A stretch of 61,799 nt of DNA, the filler included, from Dugesia japonica (lineage: Eukaryota): the NCBI GenBank assembly GCA_001938525.1. It is 5 parts of 5 records of this genome, joined end to end, with 100 filler letters (N's around TTAATTAATTAA, not from the genome) between each part and the next. Parts side by side here need not be neighbours in the genome. Positions count along the whole stretch, not along the records: positions 10,749 to 27,540 come from MQRL01615268.1; 4 more parts are not named here. One strand, written 5' to 3'. The position numbers and the translations under genes were made by a program. Positions 9,071 to 40,500 of the stretch are shown here, one piece after another (within the stretch, counting starts at the first letter, position 1; each line of letters starts with the position of its first letter). Below the pieces are notes generated by a model. It did not search any database. It saw only the letters and a list, made by a program, of their open reading frames with translations, and was not told the origin of the DNA.

Positions 9071-10579
9071 ATGTGTTCCCTTAGTCATTCAAACTTCTTT
9101 CTGTTTCGGGCTCTGCAAATATTGTAGCTGAGAAAACCATTTACTCAAATGGCAGTTATCAAAATGTAACTAGCAATATTATTTGTTGAACCAAAATCAG
9201 AAATTTTTGAAAATGGAATTATGATATTGACAGAGAGATAGAAATAAATTATCGACAATAATGAGCAATAGAATAAAGAATAAGATTAATAATTGCTTTT
9301 TATTTAATAGTAAAAAACCGAAGGAACTTTTCTTACAACGTAATAGTGTGATGACCATTTTTCGTGTTTAAAGTTATCAGTGAACTAATTGTAGTTTAAA
9401 ACATGATCAAAAAATATAACAATTTGTCAACCGTTTCTTAAATGATGACCAATTAACAATTTCATAGAAAGTCTAAATTGAAAATGAAAATAAATATTAG
9501 ACTGAGAAATACAATAAAAAAGAAAGTTATGAAGTTGTATAAATTTACAATGTAAATTTTAGGTCAATAATAAATTATTAAGTTCGTGAATCCTGGAAAA
9601 AACTGACTGATTATACAGAATCCGTACCAAATAGATAAAATTCCAAAAAATGTATTTTAATCATTTAAAGTTCTTATGATAATGTTTCATTTATAGTTAA
9701 TCTCCAAAGGAAATATTAAATGTTGATAATAAAGAGAAGGTTAAAGACTAATTCTTGAAAAATTTCAATAAATTTAATTTTAAATTTATACACTAAACTT
9801 GAATTTCGTTGATGGCACCTATTTTAGGTTTGCAGATGGGTAACACGAACCTAGCGCTGACTGAGTAAATAGCACACATACACAATTATATATAAATATT
9901 ACAAAAAATAGTCTGATTTTAATAATTTCATAAAACCTACAATTTGTCGATCCGGCAAATGTATTTTTTCAACACCAATACTTTCAACAAATAATTGCAG
10001 AAACTGTAACAGAAAAAGATAGAAAAAAATACCTTTCGCCATGGAAAATTTATTATTATTGTATTTTATAGATTCAATTTTGTTTTAATCAATGGGAAGA
10101 TATCAATTATTTTTCACCGCTGAATGAGTTCAGGAATTATGAGATGAACAATTACTGTTGAAAATGAACAAAATTTTGGTTGACAGATTTTAGACCTAAA
10201 TAAAATTCTCTAGACTAGTTAAATATTCTGCGATATTTACAAATTTTTTTTCAAACAATTACCAACTTATTTAACAGTTGTTACAGCTTGTGACAAAAAA
10301 TGTGACGTTTTATTCTTTCTGTATTAATATAATATATAAATTTTGTAATAACGGTTTTCAATGATATTTTCGGATAATTATTGAATTATCAATATTTTCT
10401 GGAAAAATTCTAAAAATTATTTAAAACAGTTTCTTGTCAGTGAAAATCTTTTCTCATTAATAATAAACAAGCTACTTTGTTATCAAAAGCTTTGAAATTA
10501 TATAAAGATAATTACTGGAAAATAAGTTAACCAAAAAATGTAATCAAATATAAATAATAATTAGAAAATCATTTTAAAA

Positions 10580-10648: not shown

Positions 10649-10692
10649 NNNNNNNNNNNNNNNNNNNNNNNNNNNNNNNNNNNNNNNNNNNN

Positions 10693-10704
10693 TTAATTAA
10701 TTAA
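10693..10704. other. Artificial TTAATTAATTAA scaffold spacer inside an N gap (also 27585-27596, 40445-40456, 52770-52781)
   Basis: The identical 12-mer, with stops in all six frames, sits centred in N runs at four sites. Confidence 0.85.
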
Positions 10705-10748
10705 NNNNNNNNNNNNNNNNNNNNNNNNNNNNNNNNNNNNNNNNNNNN

Positions 10749-10822
10749 TATTTAAATATCTTCAAAATGATATATAATTATATTGATTCAAATATGTAAA
10801 TATCTTCAAAATGATATATAAT
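10749..10822 (+). repeat. 44-bp minisatellite, left part (Polinton insertion target)
   Basis: Unit TTGATTCAAATAT(T/G)TAAATATCTTCAAAATGATATATAATTATA is truncated exactly at the AG start of the Polinton TIR. Confidence 0.85.
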
Positions 10823-10928
10823 AGTAATAGAGGAATAACGCTTACAAATCATGGGGGGACCCTTAAAATTCAGTATGGTAATTATGCTTATTACGCTTTT
10901 GGCTCAAGGGGGGGGGTTGTGTTATATT
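10823..10928 (+). repeat. Left terminal inverted repeat (~106 bp)
   Basis: Begins AGTAATAGAGG. 10840-10928 is the reverse complement of 26439-26524 except for G-run length (9 vs 6). Confidence 0.92.
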
Positions 10929-10949
10929 TTGACTTTATTTAGCAATAAT

Positions 10950-11104
10950 AAGGCAAAATATAGCACTAAATTATTGCCATAAAAAAATAAGACAAAAATA
11001 TAGCAGTAAATATAGCACTAAAATTGTTACCATAAAAAAAATAAAACAAAAATATAACAGTAAATATAGCAATAAATATAGCATAATATAGCATAATATC
11101 GCAT
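10950..11104 (+). repeat. Subterminal array of ATATAGCA-type repeats
   Basis: About 8 copies of AATAT(A/C)(G/A)CA between the left TIR and the first ORF. Confidence 0.7.
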
Positions 11105-11127
11105 TTTCTAAATTTTTCCTCTATAAA

Positions 11128-11775
11128 ATGAATGAAGGAAATTTATTAATAAATAAATACTTAGACCATAAAAAAAACAACCCCGATTTAAATGAAAAAG
11201 AAATATGCCAAGAAATTAATACAACAGTTACAATGTTACATAAGGCATTAAGAGCTAACTTTTATAAGATTCCAAGAAAAATATATCCTTTATTACATTA
11301 TAGTTATAATGAAGAAGATGATAAATTTGTAAAAGATAAAAATGGAATTTATTTTTTTAATATTAAAATTAAAGAGTTTGAATTATTATCTAAAAGAAAA
11401 AAACCAGATTTAACTGATAAAAGAACAATAGCACATAAAATTAGTAAAGGAAAAATAACAAGAAAAAAAATAATAAACCCAACAAGTGCCGGGGGAACAA
11501 TTAAAATTGATAATCAAAATTCTGAAGATGACTTATTTGATAATCAAAATTCTGAAGATAACTTATTTGATAATCAAAATTCTGAAGATAACTTATTTGA
11601 TAATCCAAATTCTGAAGATGACTTATTTGATAATCAAAATTCTGAAGATAACTTATTCGATAAGCTAAATGATAATAAGCAAAATGTTAAAAAAAACAGT
11701 GAAATGGATGAGATATTTGATAATATCAATATTGATTATAATATGAAATATTTATTAAAACCATATCGAAGATGA
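11128..11775 (+). CDS. Polinton hypothetical protein with a 10-aa tandem repeat
   Basis: 215-aa ORF preceded by TATAAA. Five 30-bp repeats encode DNQNSED(D/N)LF (~11508-11660). Confidence 0.7.
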   Translation: MNEGNLLINKYLDHKKNNPDLNEKEICQEINTTVTMLHKALRANFYKIPRKIYPLLHYSYNEEDDKFVKDKNGIYFFNIKIKEFELLSKRKKPDLTDKRTIAHKISKGKITRKKIINPTSAGGTIKIDNQNSEDDLFDNQNSEDNLFDNQNSEDNLFDNPNSEDDLFDNQNSEDNLFDKLNDNKQNVKKNSEMDEIFDNINIDYNMKYLLKPYRR

Positions 11776-11805
11776 AATAATTGTTCAAAATTTTTTCTTT
11801 ATAAA

Positions 11806-13152
11806 ATGCTAGACTTAGATTATAATATTGAATTTCAACATACAGAAATTAAAAATGATATGCTAAAAATTTCACCCTCATCGGGTTCAATCAATAATTT
11901 AAATGCAAATGGAGATATCGTATTTCAATCTTTACAATCTACAAATCCATTAGACATTTGCAATGCGCTATTATATTTTAGAATTGAATTAACATTTGGA
12001 GATAAAAATATACACAAAGATAAAATAACTCTAGAAAATAATTTCTTTCCAAGTTTATTTAAATTAATGAGATTAACACTCGGATCTACACATATTGAAA
12101 CAATCAACGATCCAGGTGTAATTTCAACAATGTTAAATTTCATATCTACAACTGACACATTTAAAAAAGAACACGGACAATTATCAGGTTGGTTACCAGA
12201 TATTAATAAAGGAGATACACAACTAACAAGTTGGGAAACTAACTTGGGTTATTATAATAGAAAAAAACTTTATAACTCAAATAAATTTGAAGGTTATTTT
12301 CAATTAAGAAATTTATTTGGCTTCTTACAGAATTACAATCGGCTATTATACAATACGATGATAGAATTTACATGTACTCGTCATTTAGAAGATAAATTAA
12401 TATTCTATGGTGAAAAAGATACAACCGCATCATTAAAAATTTTAACTCTCGAACTTCACATTCCAGAAGTTAGATTATTACTAAAAAAAGAATTAATTCT
12501 ACTAGAACGTATAGCAACAAATAAACCAATTAAAGTTTCATTCTTAAATCGCTTATCTGCGAAATCAAATCTTGACACCGGAGGATATTATTCAATTAAA
12601 ATTAGCTCTTTGGCATATCAACCAAGATATATTTTAATTGGTTTTAAAGATCCTGGAAATTCATATCAAAAGAATAATAATTTATTTATACAAAGTACTT
12701 ATATAACAGAAGAAAAAACTGTAATAAAAGATTCAACAAAACCAACAGAAACAACTGTTGAAAAAGTGAAAACATATTCATATTTAAAAGGTATTCAGTT
12801 ACAATTAAACAATACTTATTATCCAATCAATGAATTAAGATTTAACAAAGAAAATAATGAAATGGCATATCCTTATTACCAATATATTAAATGTTGTCGT
12901 GAATTCTTAACAGAACCTCAATTATCATTAATGGATTATACTAATTTATATCCGCTGTTCTGTTTTGATGTCAGTGCACATGATGACAAAATGAATATTA
13001 ATAATGTTGATGTCACACTTCATATAACAAAAGATCCAGATTTCAAAGGAATTCTTTACTGGTGCATTCTCGAAGAAAAGCATGTTGAAATGAAACTTGC
13101 TAGTAATAAAATTGTTTTAATTGAAAATGTTAGAGGAGTTGATATAAAATAA
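11806..13152 (+). CDS. Major capsid protein (double jelly-roll, hexon-like)
   Basis: 448 aa with NFFPSLF, LRNLFGF, PRYILIGF, QLNNTYYP and LYPLFCFDVS motifs typical of Polinton/adintovirus MCPs. Size and context fit. Confidence 0.85.
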   Translation: MLDLDYNIEFQHTEIKNDMLKISPSSGSINNLNANGDIVFQSLQSTNPLDICNALLYFRIELTFGDKNIHKDKITLENNFFPSLFKLMRLTLGSTHIETINDPGVISTMLNFISTTDTFKKEHGQLSGWLPDINKGDTQLTSWETNLGYYNRKKLYNSNKFEGYFQLRNLFGFLQNYNRLLYNTMIEFTCTRHLEDKLIFYGEKDTTASLKILTLELHIPEVRLLLKKELILLERIATNKPIKVSFLNRLSAKSNLDTGGYYSIKISSLAYQPRYILIGFKDPGNSYQKNNNLFIQSTYITEEKTVIKDSTKPTETTVEKVKTYSYLKGIQLQLNNTYYPINELRFNKENNEMAYPYYQYIKCCREFLTEPQLSLMDYTNLYPLFCFDVSAHDDKMNINNVDVTLHITKDPDFKGILYWCILEEKHVEMKLASNKIVLIENVRGVDIK

Positions 13153-13417
13153 ATATAAGAAATATAAACATGTTAAAATGAAATAATAAAATTGTTTTAG
13201 TTGAAATGGAATATAAGAAATGAAACTTGCTAGTAATAAAATTGTTTTAATTGAAAATGTTAGAGGAGTTTATATAAAATAAATATAAGAAATATAAACA
13301 TGTTAAAATGAAATAATAAAATTGTTTTAGTTGAAATGGAATATAAGAAATGAAACTTGCTAGTAATAAAATTGTTTTAATTGAAAATGTTAGAGGAGTT
13401 GATATAAAATAAATATA
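13087..13417 (+). repeat. 130-bp tandem repeat (~2.5 copies) duplicating the MCP 3' end
   Basis: GAAATGAAACTTGCTAG starts at 13087, 13217 and 13347. Confidence 0.9.
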
Positions 13418-13421
13418 TAAA

Positions 13422-14849
13422 ATGTCCAAGTTCCTTTGTGATTATTGTGGTAAAGTATTATTAAAGAAAAATAAATCTCGACATTTAAATTTATGTATTA
13501 ATAAGAATGGAGGAGATCTTAGCATAGCACGAGATGGCGGCGACTTACAAAATTCAAGTTTTATATCTTCACTATTAAAACCTATAACAACAGAGAAATA
13601 TCCAGGTGAACGCCATCTTTTCAAACATAATTACACTGGGCCTGGTACCCGCCTAGATATCCGACTTGAACAAGATCCTGAAAATCCAAATTATATGAAA
13701 CCAAAACCAGGTGAAGAACCAGTTAATCAAGTTGATGCAGCTGCATTAAAACATGACATTGCGTATTCCAGTGAAAATATTGAAGATCGGCATATTGCTG
13801 ATGTACATTTAATACATGATCTTAATAATATTGAAAATCCAACTACAGCAGAAAAAATTCAAAGAGCCCTTGTAAAATTGGCTATGAAAGGTAAAATTAT
13901 GATTGGTCAAAGCGTTGCGAACCATAAAGGACAAGGAGCAAAAAAGAAAGACCCATATAAAAAAACAACAATTATTAAACAAGAATCTGATGATGAAATA
14001 GAACTTGAAAAAAGTGAGGTTTTATCTAAAGAACTTCACCATGAATTCCGAAAAACTAAACATTTTAGAAAAGTAATTGTCCATGAAAAAGATGAAATTT
14101 GGTCAGCCGATCTCGTATTTCAAGGCACAGAACGTAAAAATAAACAAGTAATATTAACAGTAATAGATCTTTATACCCGATTTGCGTTTATTGAATTAAC
14201 CAGTAATAAATCTGGACCTAAAATAACAGAAGCATTTGAAAGAATTCTAGAAAAAAGCTCTAGAACACCAGAGAAACTCTGGGTTGATGAAGGTACTGAA
14301 TTTTACAATCAACATTTTAAATCTTTCTGTAATAAAAATAATATTGAAATGTATTCTATTCAAAATAAAGGAAAAGCAGTTGTAATTGAAAGATTCAATC
14401 GAACATTAAAAAGTAAACTTTTTAAACATTTTACTTCCAGTGGATCTCAAGATATCACACTTAAACTCCTAGAACAAATTGTATTTGATTATAATAATAC
14501 AATACATTCAAGTATCAATATAACACCTCAAGAAGCTTCATTAAATCCAGAAAATATAAACTTAAAACCTGTAACAAAAACAAAAACCTTAAAAACAACC
14601 ACAAGGGCAACAAAACCTAAATTTAAAATTGGCCAACGTGTAAGAATAACCAAACTCTGAAAAACATTTCCTAAAGGTTACACATTTAAATGGTCAAAAA
14701 GAATTTATATAATTAGTGATATCCGTGAACAGTTTAATTATCCAAATAATCAAGGCCAAGAACCATTTACATATCAAATCTCACATCTTAACGGCAACAA
14801 AATACTTGTAAGCTTTTATACAAACGAACTTCAAAAGACATCATTATAA
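13422..14849 (+). CDS. Zn-finger + parvovirus-type PLA2 + rve (DDE) integrase fusion, with an in-frame TGA at 14658-14660
   Basis: CDYC...H...C zinc finger. PLA2 motifs YTGPG (Ca loop), VDAAALKHDIAY and RHIAD. Integrase motifs WSADL, TVIDLYTR, WVDEGTEF and IERFNRTLK. After the TGA the frame stays open for 62 codons (KTFPKGYTFKWS...TYQI...FYTNELQK*), the normal Polinton integrase tail. Confidence 0.92.
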
Positions 14850-14906
14850 AAATTATAAATTTAAAAAGATAGAAATTAAAAAACGTCATTAAAAGTCTTT
14901 ATAAAA

Positions 14907-15059
14907 ATGGATCTAGAACAAGAATTTGAAAATTTAATAATAATATCGCAAATGCGTAATACTGATAATCTAATTTATGATTTACAAGAAATTTCTTATG
15001 AAATGTATGAGAAAGAATTTGTTAATTTATGTGATATAGAAAAGAGCCATGACTTTTGA
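14907..15059 (+). CDS. Small acidic hypothetical protein (50 aa), below the ORF-track cutoff
   Basis: MDLEQEFENLIIISQMRNTDNLIYDLQEISYEMYEKEFVNLCDIEKSHDF*. Preceded by the same TATAAAA-ATG context as neighbouring genes, and overlaps the ATPase start. Confidence 0.5.
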   Translation: MDLEQEFENLIIISQMRNTDNLIYDLQEISYEMYEKEFVNLCDIEKSHDF

Positions 15060-15846
15060 TTCGCAGAAAGCAGTGTATATTTGGAATAATAATATTACAA
15101 AATTTAATAATAAAGTCTTACCAAATAATTTTAGATTATTAATTATAGGATCTNCAGGTTCAGGTAAAAATGTATTACTTATGAAAATGCTCTTGACACC
15201 TGATTTCCTAGACTATGACAATTTAATTATCTATTCTACAACTATTAATCAATTTGAGATTCAATTATTATATCTCGGATTTGAATCTGGATTATCAAAA
15301 GAAGATATTAGTTTAATATTTCAAAAGCAACATATCACACCTAAGAATCTAGATACACCAAATGAAGTTATTAAATATTTCATTGACAAGAAACTAGTTA
15401 CAACAACCACAAGGGCAACAAAAAAAACTCGGACCAAGAACTGGATAGATGTGACATTAAGTAATCGACCTGAAGAAATAATAACATGTGACAAGTTATC
15501 AAGAGACAAGAAAAATCTTATTATTTTCGATGATGTTGTTAACGAGAAAAATCAACAAATACAGAAATCTTATTTCACAAGAGGTCGCCATTCAAATTGT
15601 AATGTTATTTATATCTCCCAAACTTATTATGATCTCGATAAAAATTCAATACGTAATAATTCAAATTGTTACATCTTTTTCAAATTAAATAAAACTGATA
15701 AAAATAATGTTTATCATGAATTATTNNNNNNNNNNNNNNNNNNNNNNNNNNNNNNNNNNNNNNNNNNNAATCTCCATTGGAAAACTAAATATAATTATTT
15801 TTATCTTAACAAAGAAACTGATGAACTTTTAGATGATTTATTCTAG
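15049..15846 (+). CDS. DNA packaging ATPase (A32/FtsK-like)
   Basis: Walker A LLIIGSxGSGKN, Walker B LIIFDD, arginine finger FTRGRH, ISQ sensor and SIRNN. Contains a short N gap. Confidence 0.92.
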   Translation: MTFDSQKAVYIWNNNITKFNNKVLPNNFRLLIIGSXGSGKNVLLMKMLLTPDFLDYDNLIIYSTTINQFEIQLLYLGFESGLSKEDISLIFQKQHITPKNLDTPNEVIKYFIDKKLVTTTTRATKKTRTKNWIDVTLSNRPEEIITCDKLSRDKKNLIIFDDVVNEKNQQIQKSYFTRGRHSNCNVIYISQTYYDLDKNSIRNNSNCYIFFKLNKTDKNNVYHELXXXXXXXXXXXXXXXNLHWKTKYNYFYLNKETDELLDDLF

Positions 15847-16176
15847 TTTATTTCTCATAATTTCTTTTCTCATAATTTCTTCTAATTCTTCGTCTGTGTA
15901 TATAATTTTATAATTACTTCTTTTTTCTCTTTCTTTTTCATATTCAATTGCTTTTTGTCTTAATTTATCTCTTTTAATTTTTTTCGGTCGTTCTGACATT
16001 ATAAATCTATAATAATCGGTTCCTTTTTTAAATGGAATAGTCTTATCTTGTTCCTCACGTGTTTTATTTAACCATTCCCATGCTAAAATTTCATTTCTTT
16101 TTATTATTTCCAATTCACATTCATTATTATGTTTTTTATAATAAGATTCACAATAATCGATATAATCTGTTGTCAT
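15838..16176 (-). CDS. Polinton hypothetical protein (112 aa, highly charged)
   Basis: Clean ATG-initiated ORF, the last gene of the minus-strand block. It converges on and overlaps the ATPase stop. Confidence 0.6.
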   Translation of the reverse strand: MTTDYIDYCESYYKKHNNECELEIIKRNEILAWEWLNKTREEQDKTIPFKKGTDYYRFIMSERPKKIKRDKLRQKAIEYEKEREKRSNYKIIYTDEELEEIMRKEIMRNKLE

Positions 16177-16273
16177 TTTAAGATAAAAATTTTAATCATA
16201 GATATCAAATTCAACAATTTTAAGTGTTGCATATTAAATTCAACATATCAAATTCAACATATTAAATTCCTAA

Positions 16274-16873
16274 TTATATTCCTAGCTTAGCGCGCATTTC
16301 AGAAATAACTTTATTTTGATTTTCAAGTAATAATTTTAAATTATCATCTTTAGATTTTTTATGTCCTGATATTAATTCATGAACATCTGATACCATCTTT
16401 TTAGAAATACTTAATTCATCATCTGTTAAAATTTCATCATCAACTGCTTTCTGTTGAAATAAGAATAGTTTATTTTTAACACATTCAAGTTTAGTTATTA
16501 ATTTTGAATATCTTTCTTTTCGAGATTTAACAAATGAAGTGTTCATTGTTCCAATTACAGGCAGAACTGAAATGGCTCCCGTAATAATCGGGATTCCAAT
16601 TCCAGTCAATGCAATTCCAACTGGAGTTATAAATATTATACCAGCTATTCCAATTCCTGCACTTAAAAGTATCTGTGTATATTTAATTCCAGAATCAATT
16701 CTATTCCATTTCTTTTCTAATTTCTTATAATGTTTAANTTTATCTTTAATATAATACAAATCATTTTCAAAATCTTTAATTCTAGATAATGACAATTTAT
16801 TTTTTAAATCTTGAATAGTATAACTATCATCTCTTAGGCTAGGATAAATATTATTATCTTCTATCATTTTCAT
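16274..16873 (-). CDS. Membrane protein resembling the adintovirus 'gasderminX' type
   Basis: IYPSL N-terminus, helical region, Gly/Ile-rich hydrophobic hairpin (LLSAGIGIAGIIFITPVGIALTGIG) and KAVDDEILTDDE motif, as recalled from Polinton accessory proteins. Confidence 0.6.
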   Translation of the reverse strand: MKMIEDNNIYPSLRDDSYTIQDLKNKLSLSRIKDFENDLYYIKDKXKHYKKLEKKWNRIDSGIKYTQILLSAGIGIAGIIFITPVGIALTGIGIPIITGAISVLPVIGTMNTSFVKSRKERYSKLITKLECVKNKLFLFQQKAVDDEILTDDELSISKKMVSDVHELISGHKKSKDDNLKLLLENQNKVISEMRAKLGI

Positions 16874-17093
16874 TAATTAAAATTTGAAGCCGTCAATAAA
16901 TTACCAAGGATAATCATTTCTAGAATATTCTTTCATTCCATAAAGTAAATTTGGGTGTACTAAATGAAGTGTAATAAATTATTTCTTTTATACTTTTAAG
17001 TGTTGGCTCATCTCCATTATAAGTTTTTATTAAAGTATCAATTCTCTTAACCTGAGATTCATTAAGATATTCTTTCAATATTTCATCTGGAAT

Positions 17094-18878
17094 TTAAAAT
17101 GTAATTAATTTAACATTTAAATTCATTAAAAAAATTTCTTTTGGTAACATTATTTCTATAAAATTTATTTTATTTACATTTAAAATTTCTTTGCTTTCTC
17201 GATAAATATTCATAAGATTATCATTAGGTTTAACAAATAAAAATGTTACTGCAACATGATTAATTTTAATGTAATAACTAAATTTTGGAACTTCACAGAA
17301 ACCATCTATACTTATTCCAACTTTATTATTTAATTTTGTATATAATGAAATAATTAAAGAATCTTTAATATTAAAATAATGATCACTGAATGTTGTATGT
17401 TTTATACAATCTTTTCTTGTAAAATCTAAATCATTTACATATTCATTAATACTATAACTTGGGAGTAAATCATTTTTCTTCATTGGAATAATTGAAAATA
17501 GGAATGGATTAGAATCCAATTTATAGGGTAAATAATTATCAATTAAATGTTTTATTTTTTGAATGTTAAATGTTTCAGATAAAATATTAAATTTATCAAT
17601 AAAATATTTATGAAGATTAGATTTTATCTTATCAAATTCTTTAGTTATATCTTCATATTTTTTACTGTTATCTAACATTTGTCTTATAGCTTTATTATCT
17701 AATTTTTCAAATAATAAATCAATATTGTTAATTTGTTTTTTATTAAATTTTGGTTTTATTTTTTCATACTCTTCTTTTAATTGTTCATTTGTTACCATTT
17801 TTTCTCTCTCAACACTTAAACCATATATCCAAAATCCTTTTGGTAAAATTATTTCAAGTAAATTTATTTCTGTTTCAGTGACATCTTGTCCAAATTCATT
17901 ATAATAATTTTCATCCCCAGTATTTGTATAATCATAAATAATATTATTAATATTAATAGTATAATGAAAGGTTTTATTTTTATAATAACAACCCTTTATA
18001 TAAACATAAATTTTTTCATTTATCTTTGTGGTTAATTTAACAGAAAAATCATTTAAAAGATAAAAATGGTGATTTTCCATTTTACCTTTTATTTTAAAAT
18101 CTAAATTGGTAACATATTCACCCATAACACTAAATTGTAGAAGATCGCTTTTATCATCGCAAATAAGTGAAAATATGTGTTTTTTAGTGTCAAGAAAAAC
18201 ATATGGTAAATAATTATCAATTAAATCTTTTATTTTTTCGAATGAATTAGATTTAAATAAAATGTTAAATTTATTAATAAAACTTTTATGTAGTTTTGGT
18301 TTTATCTTTTCATACTCAATTAATATTGTAAAGTAGTCAAAAGTTTTCTTATCCAAATCATCATCCAATTCTTCAATTTCTTTTTTCAATGTAACATTAA
18401 CGAATTGTCCGGAGGTCAGCGTAGCACCTTCTTTTAATTTAACTAATAAATCACTTTTTTTATATGAAAAAACAGATAATCTTAATCTTTCAATTTCATT
18501 TTTGATATCATTATATTTTGATATTGAACATTTATTTGTTAGATTTTGAATTTTAAGGTTCTAATCCGGATTATTCAAACGTTCAGCTTTATATTGTAAA
18601 TAAAGTTTATTGATTTCAGTTTGATCCAGTTTTAATAATTTAGTGAATATTAATTCATGTTTCTGTAATTTATCTTCAAGAGATTTAATATATTTTAAAT
18701 TAACTGCATCATTTAATTCTATAGGATCATCTATGATTTTTAAGCATGTTATAATATCACCTGTTTCATTTACAAATTTATTTTCAGCATATGACTCTGA
18801 CATTTTAATTTTAGCATTTACAGATTTTAATATTTCTGTTGAATCGTTGGAATCAGCTTTCACACCAAACTTATTCAT
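17094..18878 (-). CDS. Putative fibre/receptor-binding protein. Track ORFs 18561-18878 and 17094-18389 are one frame split by a TAG at 18561-18563
   Basis: The 57 codons between the two ORFs are in frame and open. N-terminal fibre-like motif DPIELNDAVNLKYI. Two copies of a ~170-aa module (KIKxxLHKxFIxKFNIL...KIKxLIDNYLPY...EYVxxLDF...EIxLPK). Confidence 0.65.
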
Positions 18879-18954
18879 CTCTTTTTTAATATTCTATTAT
18901 AAAGATCTAACATTTCACTGTTGAAATTTTAAATAAAGATCTTTCATTTCACTG

Positions 18955-19395
18955 TTAAAATGTTGCACTTGAATCTTTAGTTTTTTCTAATATTCTATTA
19001 TAAAGATCTAACATTTCAGATATAATATCTTCAAATTCAATATGCTGGATCTTATATAAAAAATAAATACATAAGATTCCACATATTTCAGTGTTAAAAT
19101 GTTGCACTTGAATTTTATTGTAAACTTTTACACTTGGGATTTCTTTTAATGGTTTTAAACCAAAAGAATCGAAATATTGATGATTATGGTAAGCAACCCA
19201 ATGTGTTCCATTTTGATTTGAATTTTGATAATTAAAAATATAATTCATTCCAGGAGCAATCCTCCATTTTTCATTTTTCATGTAAATTTCGAGATCCATT
19301 TTTAAAAAGTTGGATATTGAATATAAATCAAAATTTGTGGTCATGTTGATTCCAAATGTTTTTAAAAAATCTAATAAGTTATATGCTTCTGACAT
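18955..19395 (-). CDS. Adenain-like cysteine maturation protease
   Basis: Catalytic motifs GTHWVA (His), YFDSFG (Asp) and Q...CG..C (Gln/Cys). Confidence 0.92.
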   Translation of the reverse strand: MSEAYNLLDFLKTFGINMTTNFDLYSISNFLKMDLEIYMKNEKWRIAPGMNYIFNYQNSNQNGTHWVAYHNHQYFDSFGLKPLKEIPSVKVYNKIQVQHFNTEICGILCIYFLYKIQHIEFEDIISEMLDLYNRILEKTKDSSATF

Positions 19396-19493
19396 TTCTT
19401 ATAAAAATATTATAATCTAAATGTTAACATGTTAAATGTTAAAATCTATAATCGATATTTTCTTGGTTAAAATCTAAATGTTAAAATCCAAAT

Positions 19494-20306
19494 TTATAAT
19501 CGATATTTTCTTAGATGAACTAAAATTGTAATTGTTTCTTGGTTAAAATCTATCGTGTTAAAGTTTTCATCTACGATGTTAAATTTAAAATCATCAATGT
19601 AATCTGTGTTAATTTTAGAATAAATAGGAGGTGATGGTCGTTCAACTATTTTATATCCAAATGGAACTGTATTAATAGGAAATGAATATAAAAGATTAAT
19701 TTGTTTTGTTTTTGTTTCTTCTACCTTCGATGTAACATAGTTACCTTTAACAATGTCACATGTAATATTTAACGCGTTAATATTTGTAATATTAATTTTA
19801 TTTTCTGAATAATAATTTCCAGGTTCATACTTTCCAGGTTTAAATCCTAGGATCTCGTGAAAGAATGAATTAGAATCAAAAGTTATTGTTACTTTAGTTT
19901 TAATGTTACATTTAGATGTTGCAGTGTCAGGTTTAATCTCTAGATATTTTTCTAATCGATTTGACATTTCTCTAACTTCATATGATCCAGGTTCTAGGTA
20001 TTTTTCCCCTTTTATGTCTTCATATTGTGGCTTTATGGTTGTTGGTTTTTGTGGTTGTTGTTGTTGTTGTGGTTGTTGTTGTGATAGCCCTGTGTCTTCC
20101 TTTATGGTTTTGGTTGTTGGTTGTTGGTTTATTAAGATTTTACCTTCAACATGGAATTTATTATTTAAATCGGTAATATTAAAAATTATATTGTAGCATG
20201 AAAAATATAACAATCCAAGTTCGTATTCTGAATCTAATTTTATTGGATAATCCATGTTAACTTTTAAATTATCTTCTGTTCCAACTACTAAGAATTGATG
20301 AGACAT
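19494..20306 (-). CDS. Minor capsid protein (penton, single jelly-roll) with a poly-Q insertion
   Basis: YPIKL..EYELGL, FNIT..NNKF, PGSYE, ILGF, ITCDIV, GYKIVERP and IVDEN...IDF...HLRK motifs of Polinton pentons. Confidence 0.85.
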   Translation of the reverse strand: MSHQFLVVGTEDNLKVNMDYPIKLDSEYELGLLYFSCYNIIFNITDLNNKFHVEGKILINQQPTTKTIKEDTGLSQQQPQQQQQPQKPTTIKPQYEDIKGEKYLEPGSYEVREMSNRLEKYLEIKPDTATSKCNIKTKVTITFDSNSFFHEILGFKPGKYEPGNYYSENKINITNINALNITCDIVKGNYVTSKVEETKTKQINLLYSFPINTVPFGYKIVERPSPPIYSKINTDYIDDFKFNIVDENFNTIDFNQETITILVHLRKYRL

Positions 20307-20329
20307 TTTCTTTAGAAATATTTTACATT

Positions 20330-21637
20330 TTATTTAAAATATTTGGACTTATATTTTTTATAAATAATATCCGACAATAGTCCTTTAGATTTTAATTGTT
20401 TACAGAGAGTCTTGATTTCGGATGAGAGATTATCATGTCCAGATTTTGCAGCTGAAATTAATAATGTTAACTTTTCAAATAATGCTAATGGATTTTGTTT
20501 TCTGTTTTTATGACCACTTCCACTTTTTATCTTTAAATAATTATAATATGAATCATTTTTAGGTGGTTTTACCAAATCTAAATATAATGGAATATATTTT
20601 TTTCTTGTTTCTATAAATGATGAATTTATTTTTTCTTTATTTCCTGAAATTAAATCTATTAAAATATTATTAAATGAATTAGCTTTTATTCCTTCAGAAA
20701 CATAACTAGTGGTGTCCCTTTTATAAAAAAATATTTCTTTATCATTTTTAGGAAATTTTAATGTTAAGAATTTTTTATCATTAACAGTTGTATAATACAT
20801 TTTTGGTGTTGTTAATTCTGTTAATGAATCTGTTAAATTAAAATCATCAATTTTTAAAATTGGATGTACTTTATCTTTTTTAAATATTTCTAATATTTCT
20901 TCTTGTTGTCCTTGTGGTTTTTCTAGCTTTATGGATCTTTCTTCCTCTATTTCATAATCAGATTTATTATATTCTGGTTCAGATTCTGGTTCTGGTTTAG
21001 TTAATATAGCATCGTCTTCTGTTTTCTTTCTTGTTATTCTTTTAGGTGGTTTTCCAGGATCAACTTTTCTAAATTTATTTTTTAATTTAGTAACATAATC
21101 ACAATTAGTTGGTAAAGGAGATATTAATTTTAAATAAGTCTCAATTTCTTCAGGTGATTCTTTACCATCAATATTTCCTAGGATCATTCTAAAAATTCCA
21201 TCTGAGTATGGTATAACTTCGGATTTAAATAAGAAATATTTATTATCGAGTTCGGAGAATAAATGAATTTTATTTTCTTTTAGGGTTATTTCTAGAAAAC
21301 TTTTAATTTTATCAAGTGCTATGACATCTAATTTAGAAAACCTAGGGATAATTGTTTGAGTTAATTTTCCGGTGGCATTTATGTTTTCAATGTAATATTC
21401 GGGTATGAATGGTAAAATTTTTTTATTTAAAAAGAATTTTGTTATATCATTAGTTTCTGGTTTAATTTCTCGTGATGTTTTAAGTTTTTCAATTGCAGAG
21501 ATCATTGGAAGTTGTAGACTTGACAAGTTAGATTGTAAACTGTTAAAATCTTGAACTTTAGAACAAAAAAAGATATTATATTTTTCTTGAGCTTTAATTA
21601 ATGCTTTTAATTCTTTAATTCTTTGTTCGACTTCCAT
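20330..21637 (-). CDS. Conserved Polinton protein of unknown function
   Basis: 435 aa. The C-terminal GSG...NPLALFEKLTLLISAAKSGHDNLSSEI...LKSKGLL matches the recurrent Polinton motif P..L..RL.LL..S..AGN....EI..I...L...G.I. Confidence 0.75.
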   Translation of the reverse strand: MEVEQRIKELKALIKAQEKYNIFFCSKVQDFNSLQSNLSSLQLPMISAIEKLKTSREIKPETNDITKFFLNKKILPFIPEYYIENINATGKLTQTIIPRFSKLDVIALDKIKSFLEITLKENKIHLFSELDNKYFLFKSEVIPYSDGIFRMILGNIDGKESPEEIETYLKLISPLPTNCDYVTKLKNKFRKVDPGKPPKRITRKKTEDDAILTKPEPESEPEYNKSDYEIEEERSIKLEKPQGQQEEILEIFKKDKVHPILKIDDFNLTDSLTELTTPKMYYTTVNDKKFLTLKFPKNDKEIFFYKRDTTSYVSEGIKANSFNNILIDLISGNKEKINSSFIETRKKYIPLYLDLVKPPKNDSYYNYLKIKSGSGHKNRKQNPLALFEKLTLLISAAKSGHDNLSSEIKTLCKQLKSKGLLSDIIYKKYKSKYFK

Positions 21638-21716
21638 TATTTCGCGTAGCTCTTTTATAAAGATTTAATTTGTACGAAGTCGTCCTTTATGGATCTTTCC
21701 AGCTTAGCGCGTTATG

Positions 21717-22373
21717 TTAATAATCATCTGTTTCATAATCATCGGTTACATAATCATCTTCGGTTTCATAATCTTCGGTTTCGGTTTCGTTATCTATTTC
21801 TCCTCCATTATATGTAGGATATGGATTTAAATATAAACCATTTCCTTTCTTAATTATACGAGTTCCAGATTTAAACTTTTTAGTTAAATTTTTAAATTTA
21901 GGATCAATATTTCTTAAATATTTATGTATTGCGGTTCCTTGATATGGATTTAGATATATTCCCTGGCCTTTGTGGTCTTTCTTTTTATGGTTTTTGATTC
22001 CTGATCCTGATGTTCCTGGTCCTTCTGCCTTTATGGATCTTCCTGTGGTTAGTTTTTTAGCTTCAACTTCTTTTTGGATATCAATTAATTCACCTTCTTT
22101 TTGTTTGTTAATTGTTTCTCTCGATTTTGCAACTGTTTTTGCGACACCAGCTGCAATACCGGATGCAACACCTGCTGCAGCACCTGTAGTTGCTAATGCT
22201 GCAATAATTGCTGGTAATGCTGCTAAGAATGCGAAACCACCTTCAGAATGTTTTTTAATAGCCTCATCTTTAACTTTTTCAGAAATATAATAATTTTTAC
22301 CATTAATACGTACAGATTTACATTTTCTAGAATTTATAATTTTAATTAATTCTTCTTCTGTTGCTTCTGACAT
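21717..22373 (-). CDS. Core protein with an adenovirus pX-like amphipathic segment
   Basis: GGFAFLAALPAIIAALATTGAAAGVASGIA resembles the adenovirus pX segment GGILPLLIPLIAAAIGA. Basic body, repeated KGxG(I/L)YLNPY and an acidic repeat tail. Confidence 0.7.
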   Translation of the reverse strand: MSEATEEELIKIINSRKCKSVRINGKNYYISEKVKDEAIKKHSEGGFAFLAALPAIIAALATTGAAAGVASGIAAGVAKTVAKSRETINKQKEGELIDIQKEVEAKKLTTGRSIKAEGPGTSGSGIKNHKKKDHKGQGIYLNPYQGTAIHKYLRNIDPKFKNLTKKFKSGTRIIKKGNGLYLNPYPTYNGGEIDNETETEDYETEDDYVTDDYETDDY

Positions 22374-22522
22374 TTTTTAATATCAATATTTAGTATTTCT
22401 AATTTAATTATTAACAATTTACAATTTAATTTTAATAGTGATACTTTTAATTCAAACATTTTTAATTTTAGAATTTAAAATTATACTTTTATATTAAACT
22501 AGAACATTCTAAATTATTTTTT

Positions 22523-25500
22523 CTAACGAGAGCAAAGAGTGCATTTATTTATTAGATCTAATCTGAAATGCCATTGTTCACACTCACATAGATATTGATT
22601 ACCATGTGGCCATGTTTTAATTCCATCATCATCAATTATTCTTTTATCATCATATGCCATTAATACAATTTTTCTTTGTTCTTGAATTTCAATTTCATGA
22701 TTTTCTGATTTTAATGAGAAATTTGTTCCATAGATTGTTTTCTTTGAATTATTTAATATTGAATCAAAATCTCGCATTAATAATTCATTATTTTTCTTGA
22801 CACCTTTATTTTTATAATCATGTCCTTCTTTATTTTCCTCTTTATTGAAAAATGAATATGCATAAGATTTTGCTTTTACAAAATCACCTTGTAAAATTTC
22901 ACATTTAGGTTTTTCATCTTTCATCTGGAAAAGATCCTCTCCTAATAATTTTTCTAATTTTATTAAATTATCTCTACCTTTTACCTCGACAAAGATACAA
23001 TCCGTGTCGGTATAATGAATTTTATAGTTATCTTCTCCAAGTAATGGTTGCATTTGAATGTAAATAAAATCATACATCACTTGTTTTGCATGTTCGAGAA
23101 TTGTGAAGCCAATATATGGAAATTTATTATATCTTAATTTCCCCTTTTCCATTAGTATTGCAGCAACTGTGGCTTCATTTGAATCATCTAAACAGAAGAT
23201 TTTAGATGATTTAAATGTTGGTTTAGATGCAAGTCTTTGATATGCTTTGTCAGTAGAAACAATTTCTATGTTACATCGATTACGGATATTCTCTAGGGTT
23301 TTCCCATAGAATGCGTTTATCATTAATTTATAAATATAATCTCCGAAGACATCTTTATTTTTTTTAGCTGCTTTTCTTAAAACCACTAAATTTTCAACAT
23401 GATCTTTAAGCCATGTTGAAACCGGCATTTTAATCTTTTTATGAATCTTTACTAGTTTCATGCCAAGTTTTAAATAGAGATCTAATGTTGAACCGAGGAC
23501 AATATAATTCTTTTTATCAAATTGGTTTAATGTAAGTTTAATGTTATCTTTTAATATTTTCTTGTTAAATGATTTTTGATAGTTGCTTAACATGTCTTCT
23601 GTAATATTTATTCTTTCGGGACATAATGGGAAATATTTTGTCTTATCATGGATCTCTCTAGGATATTCAAGATCAACTTCGTAAATGAAATTAATTTTTT
23701 CTGTGGGTGCTTCATATAGTAACTCCCCAGACTCATTCGGTTGACACACGTAAAATTCACCTGTTGGTAACGGTCTTGTCATGCAAGATGCATATAATGA
23801 ATTTTCATCAATATATTTTATAAATGTTTCTTCCATTAGATTATCAATATATTTATCTGGAATAAATTCGTGAGTGTTCATTGTTTTTATTAGATCTTCA
23901 TATTGTGTTTTATTTAATTTTCTAGTTGATTGATTTTTATTATATGAGAATACTTGACGCTCACCTAATGTGCCAGAATACCCACCTCGAATTCCCTCTT
24001 CAATCATTAAGAAAATATCATAGGTTTGGGGTTTGGCATATTTTAAATAAACACCAGCATTTAACATTCCAGTTTCCCATGAATATTCTGGTGCTGAATA
24101 TGAATAACATGGATCTAATTTCAAGAGATTATTTAAACATGAATTTCTAAAGTTTTCTAAGAAGTCTGTTAGAATTAAAATATCAAGTTTCATATAGTGA
24201 AGCATGTAATCCCACATGTTATTAAAATCTAAATAATCTATTAAAAATTCATCATATTTATCGTTGGGTATTTCTTTTTGAGTTAGAGTGTTAAAGAAAT
24301 CTTTTCTAGTTGGTGTTCTCTTTTTCTTTAATAATTCTTCAACTTCAGTGATAGTGTTGCCTTTTACATATTCATATGGAAATGAGATTTTCTTGGGTTT
24401 TAAATTGAAAGATTTTAAGATTGGATAATTACCTGAAGATGTTAACAAATCACCCATAATTTCAACTGGTGTATTTGGTAATAATCTTGCCGAATCTAAG
24501 AATTTAATATTTCGAAATTGAAATGAAATATAATTATCTGATGTGTGAGGAATTATCTTTTTTACTTTTCCTGGAAATCTTGTTAGAAGTTCTCTGAAAA
24601 ATAAATGATTATCATAGCCGGATGCGTTATGAAAATAAAATGGTATGAATAGATTTTTTACAGAAAAGTCGTATAAATTACATTTTTCATGTGAATAACC
24701 ACGGAATTCACCTGTGAAATGATTATGATCTATAACTGGTTTCTTTTCAATGAAAGGTTTGTTACAATAATAACACTTTTGATCTATGAATTCTGGGGGT
24801 TGTCCGGAGAATTCGATTATTAATTTATTTTCTTTTATATCTTTTATTTTTTTACTAATAGAATCTAAAAAATTAAAGAAAGCTATATTAAGATTTTCAC
24901 CTGTTAAACAATAATATTTAGATTCTAGTAATTCTTGATGTTCACTATGAAGATAAATTCCTAGAGACAATGCTTTTTGTTTTTTCTTTGAATTTGTGTA
25001 TGCTTCAAAATCACCTATTAATAAGAAAGGTAATTTATTTTTCTGGTAAAATTTCTTAAATAAATAATAATGTTTGCGTTCAAATACAATGTTATTTGGT
25101 TTGTGGTTAATGCATGCTTCTTGATGTTTCTTTAGGACTTCTTCAGAAGAATAGGAATTCATACATCTTATGCATGGATAACATTTATTTCTTGCTCTTG
25201 TGAAAAATATACCTAGATCCCGACATAAGACATAATGCTCTTTATATATCAAGAGATTACATTTATTTTCTTCTTGCGAAGGTTTTGCTGTGTGATGTGA
25301 AATGTGCAAAGGTTCAAGTTTCTTTTTATCATTTGTGGCGAAAACATTTATTTTAAAATCATTTAATTTCTCGAATTTGGAAATATCAATAATTTTCATT
25401 GGAAATGTGAAATTTGAATATTTTAATTCTTCTAAATATGGAATGTAATTAGAAACACGCGATGCATTTGGTAATGGATGTTTGTGAGCTAGAATTGAAA

Positions 25501-26329
25501 ATAGAAAACATTTATCATCTTTATTTTCTATGTTAATTACTCCTTGTTTTTTAAATGGTAATTTACAATATGTAGCACCACTTTTTCCATCATATTTATT
25601 TAAGAATAATGTATAATCAGCTAGATATAGCATTGTCCAACCCGAACCTTCAAGATTTCTTTCTTCAATGCGTTTATTTAAAAGATTAAATATTTCATTG
25701 ACAATGTTATTAATTTCAGATCGAATTATAATTATTTTATTATCTGAAGGTGTTTTAAAATCTCTTTCGGTATCTTCTTTTAAATATCTAGTTGTTACCG
25801 ACAAACTTACAATTATTTGTTTTTCACATTTTAAATATTTCTTAATAATTAGATTTATATCTCTTTTAAATTTATTAATCATTCTAATTGGATTTTCGTG
25901 ATTTAATACAATATCATAAAACAATTCCGTTTTAGAATCTTTGAAATAAGATATTTCATGTTTTTTAAACATTCTTAGTGCATCTCTAATTTCAGGCTCA
26001 TAATCAATCGCCTCTTCACCTGGAAGTTCATCAAAATTTAATTTATTAACTTTTTGTTTGTGTTGTAAAGAATTAAAATGTTCTCGAGCATTACTTTCAC
26101 TTTTAAATTTTAAATTACAAATTTTACATTTTAATGGAAATTTTTCACGATTTCCACATGTATAATTTAAATGCGAATTTAAATCACTTTCTCTTTTAAA
26201 TCTTTTATTACATTTTTCACATTTAAATGTTAAATCATTATAGCAAGTTCTAGATGCAATATGCCCATTTAAACCTGCTTTATTTTTAAACGTTTTATTA
26301 CAATTGTCGCATTTAAATATTTCCGGCAT
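22523..26329 (-). CDS. polB: Protein-primed family B DNA polymerase with N-terminal zinc fingers
   Basis: Three C2H2/C2HC fingers. GDFEA (ExoI), DHNHFTGEFRG..H..CN (EndoVII-like), FHNASGYD (ExoII), YMKLD (ExoIII), DENSLY (motif A), KLMINAFYGK (B) and YTDTD (C). Intact 1268 aa. Confidence 0.96.
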   Translation of the reverse strand: MPEIFKCDNCNKTFKNKAGLNGHIASRTCYNDLTFKCEKCNKRFKRESDLNSHLNYTCGNREKFPLKCKICNLKFKSESNAREHFNSLQHKQKVNKLNFDELPGEEAIDYEPEIRDALRMFKKHEISYFKDSKTELFYDIVLNHENPIRMINKFKRDINLIIKKYLKCEKQIIVSLSVTTRYLKEDTERDFKTPSDNKIIIIRSEINNIVNEIFNLLNKRIEERNLEGSGWTMLYLADYTLFLNKYDGKSGATYCKLPFKKQGVINIENKDDKCFLFSILAHKHPLPNASRVSNYIPYLEELKYSNFTFPMKIIDISKFEKLNDFKINVFATNDKKKLEPLHISHHTAKPSQEENKCNLLIYKEHYVLCRDLGIFFTRARNKCYPCIRCMNSYSSEEVLKKHQEACINHKPNNIVFERKHYYLFKKFYQKNKLPFLLIGDFEAYTNSKKKQKALSLGIYLHSEHQELLESKYYCLTGENLNIAFFNFLDSISKKIKDIKENKLIIEFSGQPPEFIDQKCYYCNKPFIEKKPVIDHNHFTGEFRGYSHEKCNLYDFSVKNLFIPFYFHNASGYDNHLFFRELLTRFPGKVKKIIPHTSDNYISFQFRNIKFLDSARLLPNTPVEIMGDLLTSSGNYPILKSFNLKPKKISFPYEYVKGNTITEVEELLKKKRTPTRKDFFNTLTQKEIPNDKYDEFLIDYLDFNNMWDYMLHYMKLDILILTDFLENFRNSCLNNLLKLDPCYSYSAPEYSWETGMLNAGVYLKYAKPQTYDIFLMIEEGIRGGYSGTLGERQVFSYNKNQSTRKLNKTQYEDLIKTMNTHEFIPDKYIDNLMEETFIKYIDENSLYASCMTRPLPTGEFYVCQPNESGELLYEAPTEKINFIYEVDLEYPREIHDKTKYFPLCPERINITEDMLSNYQKSFNKKILKDNIKLTLNQFDKKNYIVLGSTLDLYLKLGMKLVKIHKKIKMPVSTWLKDHVENLVVLRKAAKKNKDVFGDYIYKLMINAFYGKTLENIRNRCNIEIVSTDKAYQRLASKPTFKSSKIFCLDDSNEATVAAILMEKGKLRYNKFPYIGFTILEHAKQVMYDFIYIQMQPLLGEDNYKIHYTDTDCIFVEVKGRDNLIKLEKLLGEDLFQMKDEKPKCEILQGDFVKAKSYAYSFFNKEENKEGHDYKNKGVKKNNELLMRDFDSILNNSKKTIYGTNFSLKSENHEIEIQEQRKIVLMAYDDKRIIDDDGIKTWPHGNQYLCECEQWHFRLDLINKCTLCSR

Positions 26330-26438
26330 TTTTATATAGAATTTATTTAATTATACGATGCAAAAAAGAGGATGTTTTTTGTTATTTAAGAGGATATTTT
26401 ATAATAATTAACATTAACATCCTAAAACCGAAAAGCGT

Positions 26439-26524
26439 AATATAACACAACCCCCCTTGAGCCAAAAGCGTAATAAGCATAATTACCATACTGAATTTTA
26501 AGGGTCCCCCCATGATTTGTAAGC
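26439..26524 (-). repeat. Right terminal inverted repeat (visible part; runs into gap)
   Basis: Reverse complement of 10840-10928. Confidence 0.92.
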
Positions 26525-26741
26525 NNNNNNNNNNNNNNNNNNNNNNNNNNNNNNNNNNNNNNNNNNNNNNNNNNNNNNNNNNNNNNNNNNNNNNNNNNNN
26601 NNNNNNNNNNNNNNNNNNNNNNNNNNNNNNNNNNNNNNNNNNNNNNNNNNNNNNNNNNNNNNNNNNNNNNNNNNNNNNNNNNNNNNNNNNNNNNNNNNNN
26701 NNNNNNNNNNNNNNNNNNNNNNNNNNNNNNNNNNNNNNNNN

Positions 26742-27008
26742 TTGATTCAAATATTTAAATATCTTCAAAATGATATATAATTATATTGATTCAAATATGT
26801 AAATATCTTCAAAATTATATATAATTCTATTGATTCAAATATGTAAATATCTTCAAAATGATATATAATTCTATTGATTCAAATATTTAAATATCTTCAA
26901 AATGATAAATAATTTTACTGATTAAAATATTTAAATATCTTCAAAGTGATATATAATTATATTGATTCAAATATTTAAATATCTTCAAAATGATATATAA
27001 TTATATTG
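26742..27008 (+). repeat. 44-bp minisatellite, right part (6 units)
   Basis: Units start at 26742, 26786, 26830, 26874, 26918 and 26962. Same unit and orientation as 10749-10822. Confidence 0.9.
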
Positions 27009-27717
27009 TTGAGATGCTTTGAGGATTGTTGCCAAAGCAAATCAGCAATTGCGTGAGTTTAATAGTCTTTGAATATATCCTTAAACAATCCGAAATTATT
27101 ANNNNNNNNNNNNNNNNNNNNNNNNNNNNNNNTTAATATATTTATTATATATATAGATTATATTGTTATAGATAAGCTATATAGTCAACTATTAAAAAGT
27201 AAATCAATTACTTTTAAATAAATTTTATTTTAACTCAAAAGCGTTTACAATATAATATGCGTTATTATTTTTTATCTCACGAGTGTTGTCTCTGTAAGAC
27301 TTGACTCGATTCGAGATTTAAAAAAATTTTAAGGGGTGGCATTACTAAATTTCAGTGTCGTATTTATACAGAATTTTTTGATGCGTGTGCATCCTTTACA
27401 TAATAATATAATATAATAAAAATTAAAAATATTTACATGCAAAATTTAGAATATTTAAAAAAATTTAAAATAAAATTAAAATATTTACCGTTTCTTTAAT
27501 AAAATTTCATATTCGAACAATAGCAATATAATAAAATTCCNNNNNNNNNNNNNNNNNNNNNNNNNNNNNNNNNNNNNNNNNNNNTTAATTAATTAANNNN
27601 NNNNNNNNNNNNNNNNNNNNNNNNNNNNNNNNNNNNNNNNTTGTATTATTAATCTAATTTCAAGGCTGTTATAAAAATATATAAATGTTTTTAAAATATA
27701 TAAAAATTTTAAATAGA

Positions 27718-27942
27718 ATGACTGAAAAATTGACTTTGAGGGGATCGCTTACTTGGCACGATGGTCCAATTACACAAATTGCTCTTATTTCTACTTCAAG
27801 AGACAAATCTTTAATTATTTGGGAACTTGATCGCGATGAAAATAGCCTTGGTTATGGTAAAAGAGTATTAAAGGAACGCAATGGGTTCGTTAGCGATGTT
27901 GTTATGCCAAGTGATAGACAATTTGCTTTTCTGGTAGCATAA
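27718..27942 (+). pseudogene. RACK1: RACK1 (GNB2L1) 5' fragment
   Basis: MTEKLTLRGSLTWHDGPITQIA-LISTSRDKSLIIWELDRDE...FVSDVVMPSDRQFA matches the RACK1 N-terminus, with an ~8-aa deletion, lost GH motifs and an early stop. Confidence 0.85.
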
Positions 27943-27944: not shown

Positions 27945-28325
27945 ATATTCAGCTTCGCATATTGCTCCATAATTATTGGAGAATGAATTTGAATGCAAAA
28001 GCAACGGCCAGAGCCATATGCGACATTGAAGGTAAAGGTATGATGGCCCTGCGAATTTCACATAGATGGTTTTAGCGTTTCAATGAAGGTTATTTGAAGA
28101 CGAGTCACGTTTGGAACAACCAACGGTTTTGAAAGACGGTTACTTGCAAGTCGCCTTGGATGTTGAATTGTCACCGAGTACCCGAGAATTGATCGAATAA
28201 TTTGGTGTTGATCAGAAGACAGTTTCGAATCATTTCAAGTAACTTGCCTTTGTCCACAAAAAGTCATGACAAGATCTATATGAGTTGACAGAAGCGCAAG
28301 TCACTAAACAAGTCAAAATTTGGCA
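27945..28325 (+). mobile_element. Degenerate mariner transposase fragment
   Basis: RILLH...NAKATARAICDIEGK...HRWF*RF...STREL...GVDQKTVSNH...YELTEAQ is the mariner HTH region, with stops. Confidence 0.7.
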
Positions 28326-39922: not shown

Positions 39923-40500
39923 ATTACTAAATCTTTAATAAAATAGATTTTTTTTTNNNNNNNNNNNNNNNNNNNNNNNNNNNNNNNNNNNNNNNNNNNN
40001 NNNNNNNNNNNNNNNNNNNNNNNNNNNNNNNNNNNNNNNNNNNNNNNNNNNNNNTTTTTTTTTGAATGAATATAATAATAAAATTAGAAAACCCAGAGTA
40101 TTATTGTAAGAAAGAAAGATAATGGACAAAATATGGAATTTATAAAACAATAGTTATAATTTTGAATGATAATCATAAAAGAATCACATAATTATTCTAT
40201 AACACAATTCGTTACAAATATCAAATTGTACATAAATATATGCCAATTTTTAATCATCAAATCTAAATGAATAGGTTCAAGATTAAACAACTTTTTTTTA
40301 ATAAAAATAAAATCCATTACTATGTACACATTTCTCCCATTAAGTTACAAGTTTATTTATCTCAATAGGATAGAAATCGTGAGCTCTGGATGCAAAGAAA
40401 NNNNNNNNNNNNNNNNNNNNNNNNNNNNNNNNNNNNNNNNNNNNTTAATTAATTAANNNNNNNNNNNNNNNNNNNNNNNNNNNNNNNNNNNNNNNNNNNN

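Follow-up and report, generated by a model that had tools for sequence, protein, structure and literature searches.

The 61,799-nucleotide stretch of Dugesia japonica DNA analysed here (assembly GCA_001938525.1; ‘the window’) contains, from position 10823 to an extrapolated end at 26541, an endogenous virus of approximately 15.7 kb. It is a Maverick/Polinton (adintovirus), an element of known kind, and its full virion module, proposed in a first-pass annotation of the sequence, is borne out by the gene set and by the predicted folds. We think it probable that this is an animal Maverick/Polinton virus that integrated recently into an array of a 44-bp satellite, that its decay has begun, and that the copy is now defective; such a copy could presumably be moved or packaged only with proteins supplied by another. 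Two features escaped the first-pass annotation: the satellite, which is present on both flanks, and a PLA2 domain that is fused in frame to the integrase. One more young, nearly whole Polinton is ordinary. The value of this one lies in the fusion, with its conserved candidate protease sites, a fusion that is common in sequence collections.

The genes of the virion module are recognizable by sequence or by structure. The major capsid protein (MCP; 11806–13152, + strand), a double jelly roll of 448 residues, matches PF21738 (E=1.5e-17) and is 55–57% identical to its nearest relatives. The penton, or minor capsid protein (mCP; 19494–20306, −; 270 residues), has no Pfam or PDB sequence match, and was identified from a predicted model (mean predicted confidence, pLDDT, of 68; 5 sequences in the alignment) whose top match among 48,161 chains is the penton of mavirus (Z 9.4, root-mean-square deviation 8.2, 203 residues aligned). 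Chains from PBCV-1, fowl adenovirus and Sputnik come next, and in BFVD the model matches minor capsid proteins (E 1e-10 to 1e-6). The maturation protease (18955–19395, −; 146 residues) is adenain-like: it matches PF00770 weakly (E=0.044), its catalytic His, Asp and Cys can be read from the translation, and it has relatives at 28–38% identity in four loci (L003, L009, L013 and L016). All three genes are open, as is that of the protein-primed B-family DNA polymerase (pPolB; 22523–26329, −; 1268 residues), in which the polymerase motifs are present, and on these four the first-pass annotation stands. The packaging ATPase (15049–15846, +; PF04665, E=8.3e-10) is A32/FtsK-like; because its gene contains an ambiguous base and a gap of 43 Ns, the frame can be checked only in part. 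Two more genes are conserved: one of 435 residues upstream of the penton (20330–21637, −), with a C-terminal match in the same position in L002 and L009, and one for a core-type protein of 218 residues (21717–22373, −), Gly/Ala-rich with six GG/GxG motifs, matched in 9 of 23 metagenome loci. The former we take to be PZ-like, and the latter, presumably, resembles adenovirus pX. The protease, the ATPase and both of these genes have syntenic relatives within the 23 loci.

Every defining feature of a Maverick/Polinton that can be tested here is present; the target-site duplication lies out of sight, in a gap of Ns. As described in PMC8097293, the Polintoviricetes share with the element pPolB, integrase, ATPase, protease, MCP, mCP and two further conserved genes, and the element’s size and terminal inverted repeats (TIRs) fall within the ranges given there (12.7–24.6 kb and 46–1447 bp). 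It differs from the intact vertebrate Mavericks of that account in its premature stops, its PLA2-bearing integrase and its gene order. Open frames of at least 100 residues cover 89% of the element, compared with 0–32% of the other pieces of the window.

The element starts with 5'-AG at 10823, the exact point at which the satellite breaks off. The 74 bp before it (10749–10822, +) are satellite by alignment, and are contiguous with a left TIR of 106 bp (10823–10928, +). On the right, 86 bp of TIR are visible (26439–26524, −), and these match 10840–10928 with no substitutions, apart from a 3-nt indel in a run of Gs. The outer 17 bases of this arm fall within a gap of 217 Ns (26525–26741), and for this reason the element’s end is extrapolated. 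The first-pass claim that the TIRs are identical but for the G-run is upheld for the 86 visible bases and goes no further than these. Polintons are characteristically bordered by a target-site duplication of 5–8 bp, and any such duplication here would be covered by the same gap. Beyond it lies more satellite (26742–27008, +), 6.1 copies of the 44-bp unit with 93% matches. The left-hand 74 bp align over their full length to this right-hand array in direct orientation (score 143, versus 44 when reversed), and the unit occurs nowhere in the window except at the element’s flanks. Had the scaffold been misjoined in mirror fashion through the TIR, the satellite would be inverted on one side; since its orientation is the same on both, the flanks are more simply explained by insertion into a satellite array. 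Satellite targeting as a trait of the family was set aside, as there is one site only and the literature search yielded no paper on targeting. A short motif with the core TACGCTT recurs within and just inside the TIRs (10838–10901 and 26434–26524), and is a candidate binding site for replication initiation.

The copy is damaged in several places. A TGA at 14658–14660 ends the integrase frame, and we regard it as premature because the relatives run on (63 of 68 have at least 45 more residues past a marker motif, versus 12 in the element) and because the 62 open in-frame codons behind it (14661–14849, +) match L002, L004 and L024–L026 at 37–45% identity; the chance of an open frame of this kind is 0.006. 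The fibre-like gene (16911–18878, −) is interrupted by an in-frame TAG (18561–18563) and an in-frame TAA (17094–17096), leaving three in-frame pieces of 105, 488 and 60 codons. It forms a single frame with an internal in-frame duplication (39% identity over 165 residues, E=2.5e-29), and this repeat, together with the codon pattern, argues that the part without an ATG is coding; 145 such codons would remain open by chance at 3e-7. The label ‘fibre-like’ is a weak one, taken from gene position and from a short motif that also occurs in L024 (E=0.021), and the 488-residue piece has no relative among 1.84 billion representatives, and no usable Atlas match. The Walker A motif of the ATPase is non-canonical, whereas it is canonical in all four relatives compared. 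These lesions had all been flagged in the first-pass annotation, and each was found again; no frameshifts were seen in the element outside the N gap. By the standard that PMC8097293 sets for ‘intact’ Mavericks, the premature integrase stop and the non-canonical Walker A place the copy among those that are not. With the integrase and the fibre-like gene damaged, and the packaging ATPase probably so, the copy is unlikely to be autonomous, and the description ‘near-intact’ suits its coding capacity rather than its function.

The number of stops suggests that the damage is recent. Over 14,058 coding sites, 3.9–6.3% of single-base changes create a stop, and three stops then correspond to 0.34–0.55% substitutions per site, or two stops to 0.22–0.37%. 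Constraint would thus have been lost about 0.2–0.6% divergence ago (widest 95% range, 0.03–1.6%). This clock and the identity of the TIRs are why we, like the first-pass annotation, consider the element young. That annotation had relied instead on contrast with the decayed transposons around it; these lie beyond spacers of 100 bases, and so are probably not neighbours. There are four such spacers, identical (44 N + TTAATTAATTAA + 44 N), at 10649–10748, 27541–27640, 40401–40500 and 52726–52825, and their core, TTAATTAATTAA, is a stop in six frames. They are probably artificial joins between five scaffolds, of which one, about 16.8 kb long, would carry the element, and others the decayed long terminal repeat (LTR), mariner-like and chuvirus-like pieces.

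The open reading frame (ORF) of the integrase (13422–14660, +) encodes, up to its premature end, a zinc finger-like N-terminus (the Cys pattern judged by eye), a PLA2 domain (PF08398, E=2.3e-8) with Ca-loop and catalytic motifs, and an rve integrase core (PF00665, E=1.1e-10). The predicted model of the protein has three folded units, with the retroviral integrase fold in the integrase part, and two low-confidence linkers (residues 30–41 and 164–187); the GG/GxG motifs at 30, 39 and 170 lie inside these linkers. The fusion is found among the metagenome relatives L001, L002 and P0184–P0303, and in a protein of the coral Oculina patagonica (P0259); best identities are 41–54% for the fusion and 41–57% for MCP. 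We examined the best 120 of 472 relatives of the fusion protein. PF08398 and PF00665 occur together in 92 of these 120, the one named coral protein included, and 70 keep both the Ca-loop and the catalytic motifs of PLA2. A GG stands no more than 60 residues upstream of PLA2 in 57 of the 70 (control: none of 134 integrase-core windows), and in 40 upstream motifs it is followed by the same acidic residue. Downstream, a GG or GxG is found 44–56 residues past the PLA2 catalytic motif in 64 of the 70 (control: 3 of 469). Among IMG/VR contigs, PLA2 and integrase are fused in L024, adjacent but in separate frames in L025 and L026, and far apart in L027, L028, L030–L033, L035 and L038, as expected of two separable units. 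L026 (1–15597) appears to be a complete 15.6-kb genome with perfect 123-bp TIRs. In it the ORFs for PLA2 and integrase lie in different frames, with an overlap of 10 bases. The frame changes in similar fashion at this junction in L025, and a programmed frameshift is possible there.

On balance we lean towards the view that integrase and PLA2 form one packaged precursor, cut by the viral protease on both sides of PLA2. What suggests this is the fusion itself, the conserved GG/GxG motifs that flank PLA2 and resemble the sites cleaved by mavirus and adenovirus proteases, the linkers in the model, the separable arrangements in relatives, and the precedent of mavirus, whose protease, by the account in PMC6048507, cuts at GG|X and GX|G and whose virions hold an rve integrase and a cleaved hydrolase. 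In a functional parent of the element, to judge from the family, pPolB, primed by protein, would copy the linear genome from the TIRs at its ends, the A32 ATPase would package it into the MCP/penton capsid, and the clan CE protease would mature the particle by cutting GG/GxG sites. On entry, the freed PLA2 lipase would help to breach the endosome—a role proposed for Polinton PLA2 by analogy with parvoviruses (PMC4642659, PMC8502044)—and the integrase would travel with the viral DNA and then insert it. The element is not a member of the mavirus group: its MCP is of the Polinton type, its pPolB is full-length and bears exonuclease motifs, it has no known helper giant virus, and it fuses to PLA2 the integrase that mavirus encodes separately from its hydrolase. 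It is also possible, if somewhat doubtful, that the GG/GxG motifs are flexible hinges, and that the protein functions without being cut, PLA2 serving as a tether or riding along inactive. The downstream motif is indeed variable in form, mavirus has GXG sites that are left uncut (PMC6048507), and several details fit cleavage poorly: the controls were drawn from a folded domain, so that glycine-rich motifs in linkers would be expected even without cleavage, a true GG is found downstream of PLA2 in only 13 of the 70 relatives and the stricter adenain-type pattern in only 20, and the element’s own protein keeps just the invariant first glycine at the conserved downstream position, its GxG lying 8 residues further on. 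Against hinges stand the 40 upstream GG motifs with their identical acidic residue, a pattern tighter than a hinge needs, the retention of Ca-loop and catalytic motifs, and the existence of forms in which PLA2 and integrase are split.

Recent integration followed by decay must itself be weighed against two ways in which an assembly can mislead. The scaffold barely exceeds the element and has a gap at one TIR, which is typical of repeat assembly, and two ambiguous single bases lie inside the element; it could therefore represent many copies of a currently active family, collapsed into one during assembly, its lesions being assembly errors or private to one copy while siblings make particles. 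We consider this unlikely. The majority call of an active family should not show three stops and a damaged Walker A, and ambiguous single bases are as common outside the element, where 11 of the 13 sites are found. Vertebrate genomes do harbour intact and decayed copies side by side, according to PMC8097293, and two DNA runs, from two studies (X1, X2), each contain 0.22 of the element’s words; one of the two may be the source. Among 24 listed runs, 11 (from 5 studies) contain part of 16739–26524, the shares under 0.2 in 9 of these 11 being no evidence, and there is no RNA run among the 24 that contains the element’s words. Less probable still is an origin of the scaffold in some organism sequenced alongside the host, or a misjoin, with no insertion in the genome that holds the window’s other genes. 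Linker-filled spacers do separate the element from host genes, and its nearest relatives are metagenome sequences, but base composition matches that of the rest of the window (25.2% G+C inside; 25.2% and 25.8% outside), the same satellite is present at both ends in direct orientation, and the two runs above 0.2, from different studies, carry the same organism code. Recent integration and decay, the reading we prefer, has weaknesses of its own. The right junction, where a target-site duplication would sit, is within the 217 Ns; the flank that ties the element to anything amounts to 74 bp plus about 800 bp; the attribution of the satellite to host DNA is putative; the stop clock presumes that the stops are real and neutral; and pPolB departs from its relatives at 36 of 152 conserved columns, which lineage distance explains as well as decay does.

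The polymerase is distant from anything to which it was compared. It has N-terminal C2H2 fingers, an endonuclease VII insert, Exo I/II and Pol A/B/C motifs, and candidate Cys and His residues of a vOTU domain; 366 homologues were found (E down to 1e-141), and the best identity to any match is 37–39%. In a tree of 33 rows (search matches and two loci only, 30 of them hand-picked from 120 matches), it shares a long branch with P0001 and P0002 and stands away from the named insect elements, the placement of so long a branch being unsure. As it lacks a PF03175 match at E<=0.1, it would be assigned to the Beta class as PMC8502044 defines it, which comprises adintoviruses with an OTU-type PolB outside the pfam03175 class and is further marked by a lack of strong bidnavirus matches and by clustering with the Terrapene exemplar; its nearest relative, P0001, has a precomputed PF03175 match. 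Penton, hexon, adenain, FtsK and integrase are likewise common to the element and the Beta adintoviruses of that paper. The same scheme assigns PLA2 to the virion modules of the Alpha group, where it is joined to a pX-like domain (PLA2X). No PLA2X is found here: PLA2 is carried on the integrase, the core-type gene is separate, and the polymerase resembles the Beta type. The gene order departs, too, from that of L002, L009 and L013, in which the ATPase directly follows the core-type gene; the element’s ATPase is on the other strand, behind the integrase. In motif C, the residue after the catalytic aspartates differs from that in all of the 120 best-listed relatives, possibly a further lesion. 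Departures at conserved columns were rejected as a measure of decay, because those of MCP (5 of 85 columns) and of the integrase (2 of 66) lie within the relatives’ own range and a single distant clade dominates the comparison set for pPolB. Endonuclease VII was likewise discarded as a marker of any group, since insect Mavericks whose PolB is densovirus-like match it weakly too, as reported in PMC5803895.

The fusion offers a concrete and testable answer to the question of how a Polinton might deliver its integrase, together with a lipase for entry, to a new cell. We did not find it described in the literature searched, where figure gene maps or supplements may show such a fusion. Virions of animal Maverick-Polintons have not been observed to date, in the accounts of PMC8097293 and 10.64898/2026.06.19.733378. 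A further young copy is in itself no surprise: 134 intact vertebrate Mavericks are reported in PMC8097293, and thousands of Polintons in corals in PMC11131425. The first-pass annotation suggested that the lineage may still be active as a virus in this host; that particles are being made in it at present is rather improbable, and the fuller proposition, of a widespread lineage with a cleaved integrase–PLA2 polyprotein whose siblings in this animal still make particles, is decidedly so. Were it true, it would supply natural virions of an animal Polinton together with a defined mechanism of entry and integration. Many RNA runs are public under the host label, which makes the expression of the virion genes open to immediate checking.

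Three further ORFs belong to the element. One of 199 residues with a central hydrophobic stretch (16274–16873, −) is conserved, with tblastn matches in L013 (E=4e-7) and L026 (E=8e-9); neither it nor the 218-residue core-type ORF has a Pfam match above chance level. The accessory genes that characterize Beta adintoviruses are of GasderminX or cupiennin-like type. Two accessory ORFs belong to no family: one of 112 residues (15838–16176, −), and one of 215 residues (11128–11775, +) with an acidic repeat of 30 bp x5.5, over which alone it weakly matches phrog_7809. Comparison of the element’s proteins with PHROGs gave nothing else of use, and scans of viral contigs with MCP and with an MCP alignment found no relative. 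A possible acidic ORF of 50 residues (14907–15059, +), in the interval between integrase and ATPase, overlaps the start of the latter and has a coding-like base pattern, with no match in the metagenome and IMG/VR loci compared. Short tandem or near-tandem duplications occur at the 3' ends of five genes: MCP (13087–13417, +; 130 bp x2.5, 99% matches, with no adjoining N gap), the protease (18882–19116), the penton (about 19400–19540), the 199-residue ORF (16188–16269) and the 215-residue ORF (11720–11757). Slippage at gene ends, or duplicated termination signals, would be our guess.

The other pieces of the window hold remnants of mobile elements and of host genes. A broken fusion glycoprotein gene of Monjiviricetes (chuvirus-like) type lies in pieces at 40586–42853 (−; PF24664, E=3e-23 to 1e-10), with two ORFs upstream of it that were given no assignment (42828–43940). 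An LTR retrotransposon remnant (52826–55607, −) retains reverse transcriptase (RT)/RNase H and a zinc knuckle, and there is a separate RT fragment at 8787–9080 (−). Mariner-like transposase remnants, judged by eye from translation, are present at 2080–2412 (−), which has no Pfam match, and at about 28100–28330. An intronless tetraspanin ORF of 287 codons lies at 39074–39934 (−; PF00335, E=1.9e-9). Host gene pieces comprise a RACK1 pseudogene fragment (27718–27939), a CYB5D1 exon (46118–46435) and an EFHD-like exon (5105–5398). The best matches of these gene pieces are to animal RACK1, EFHD1 and CYB5D1, and they point to an animal with motile cilia. Near-identical direct repeats flank N gaps at 51992–52475, 5880–6411 and 56873–57584, and are probably assembly overlaps.

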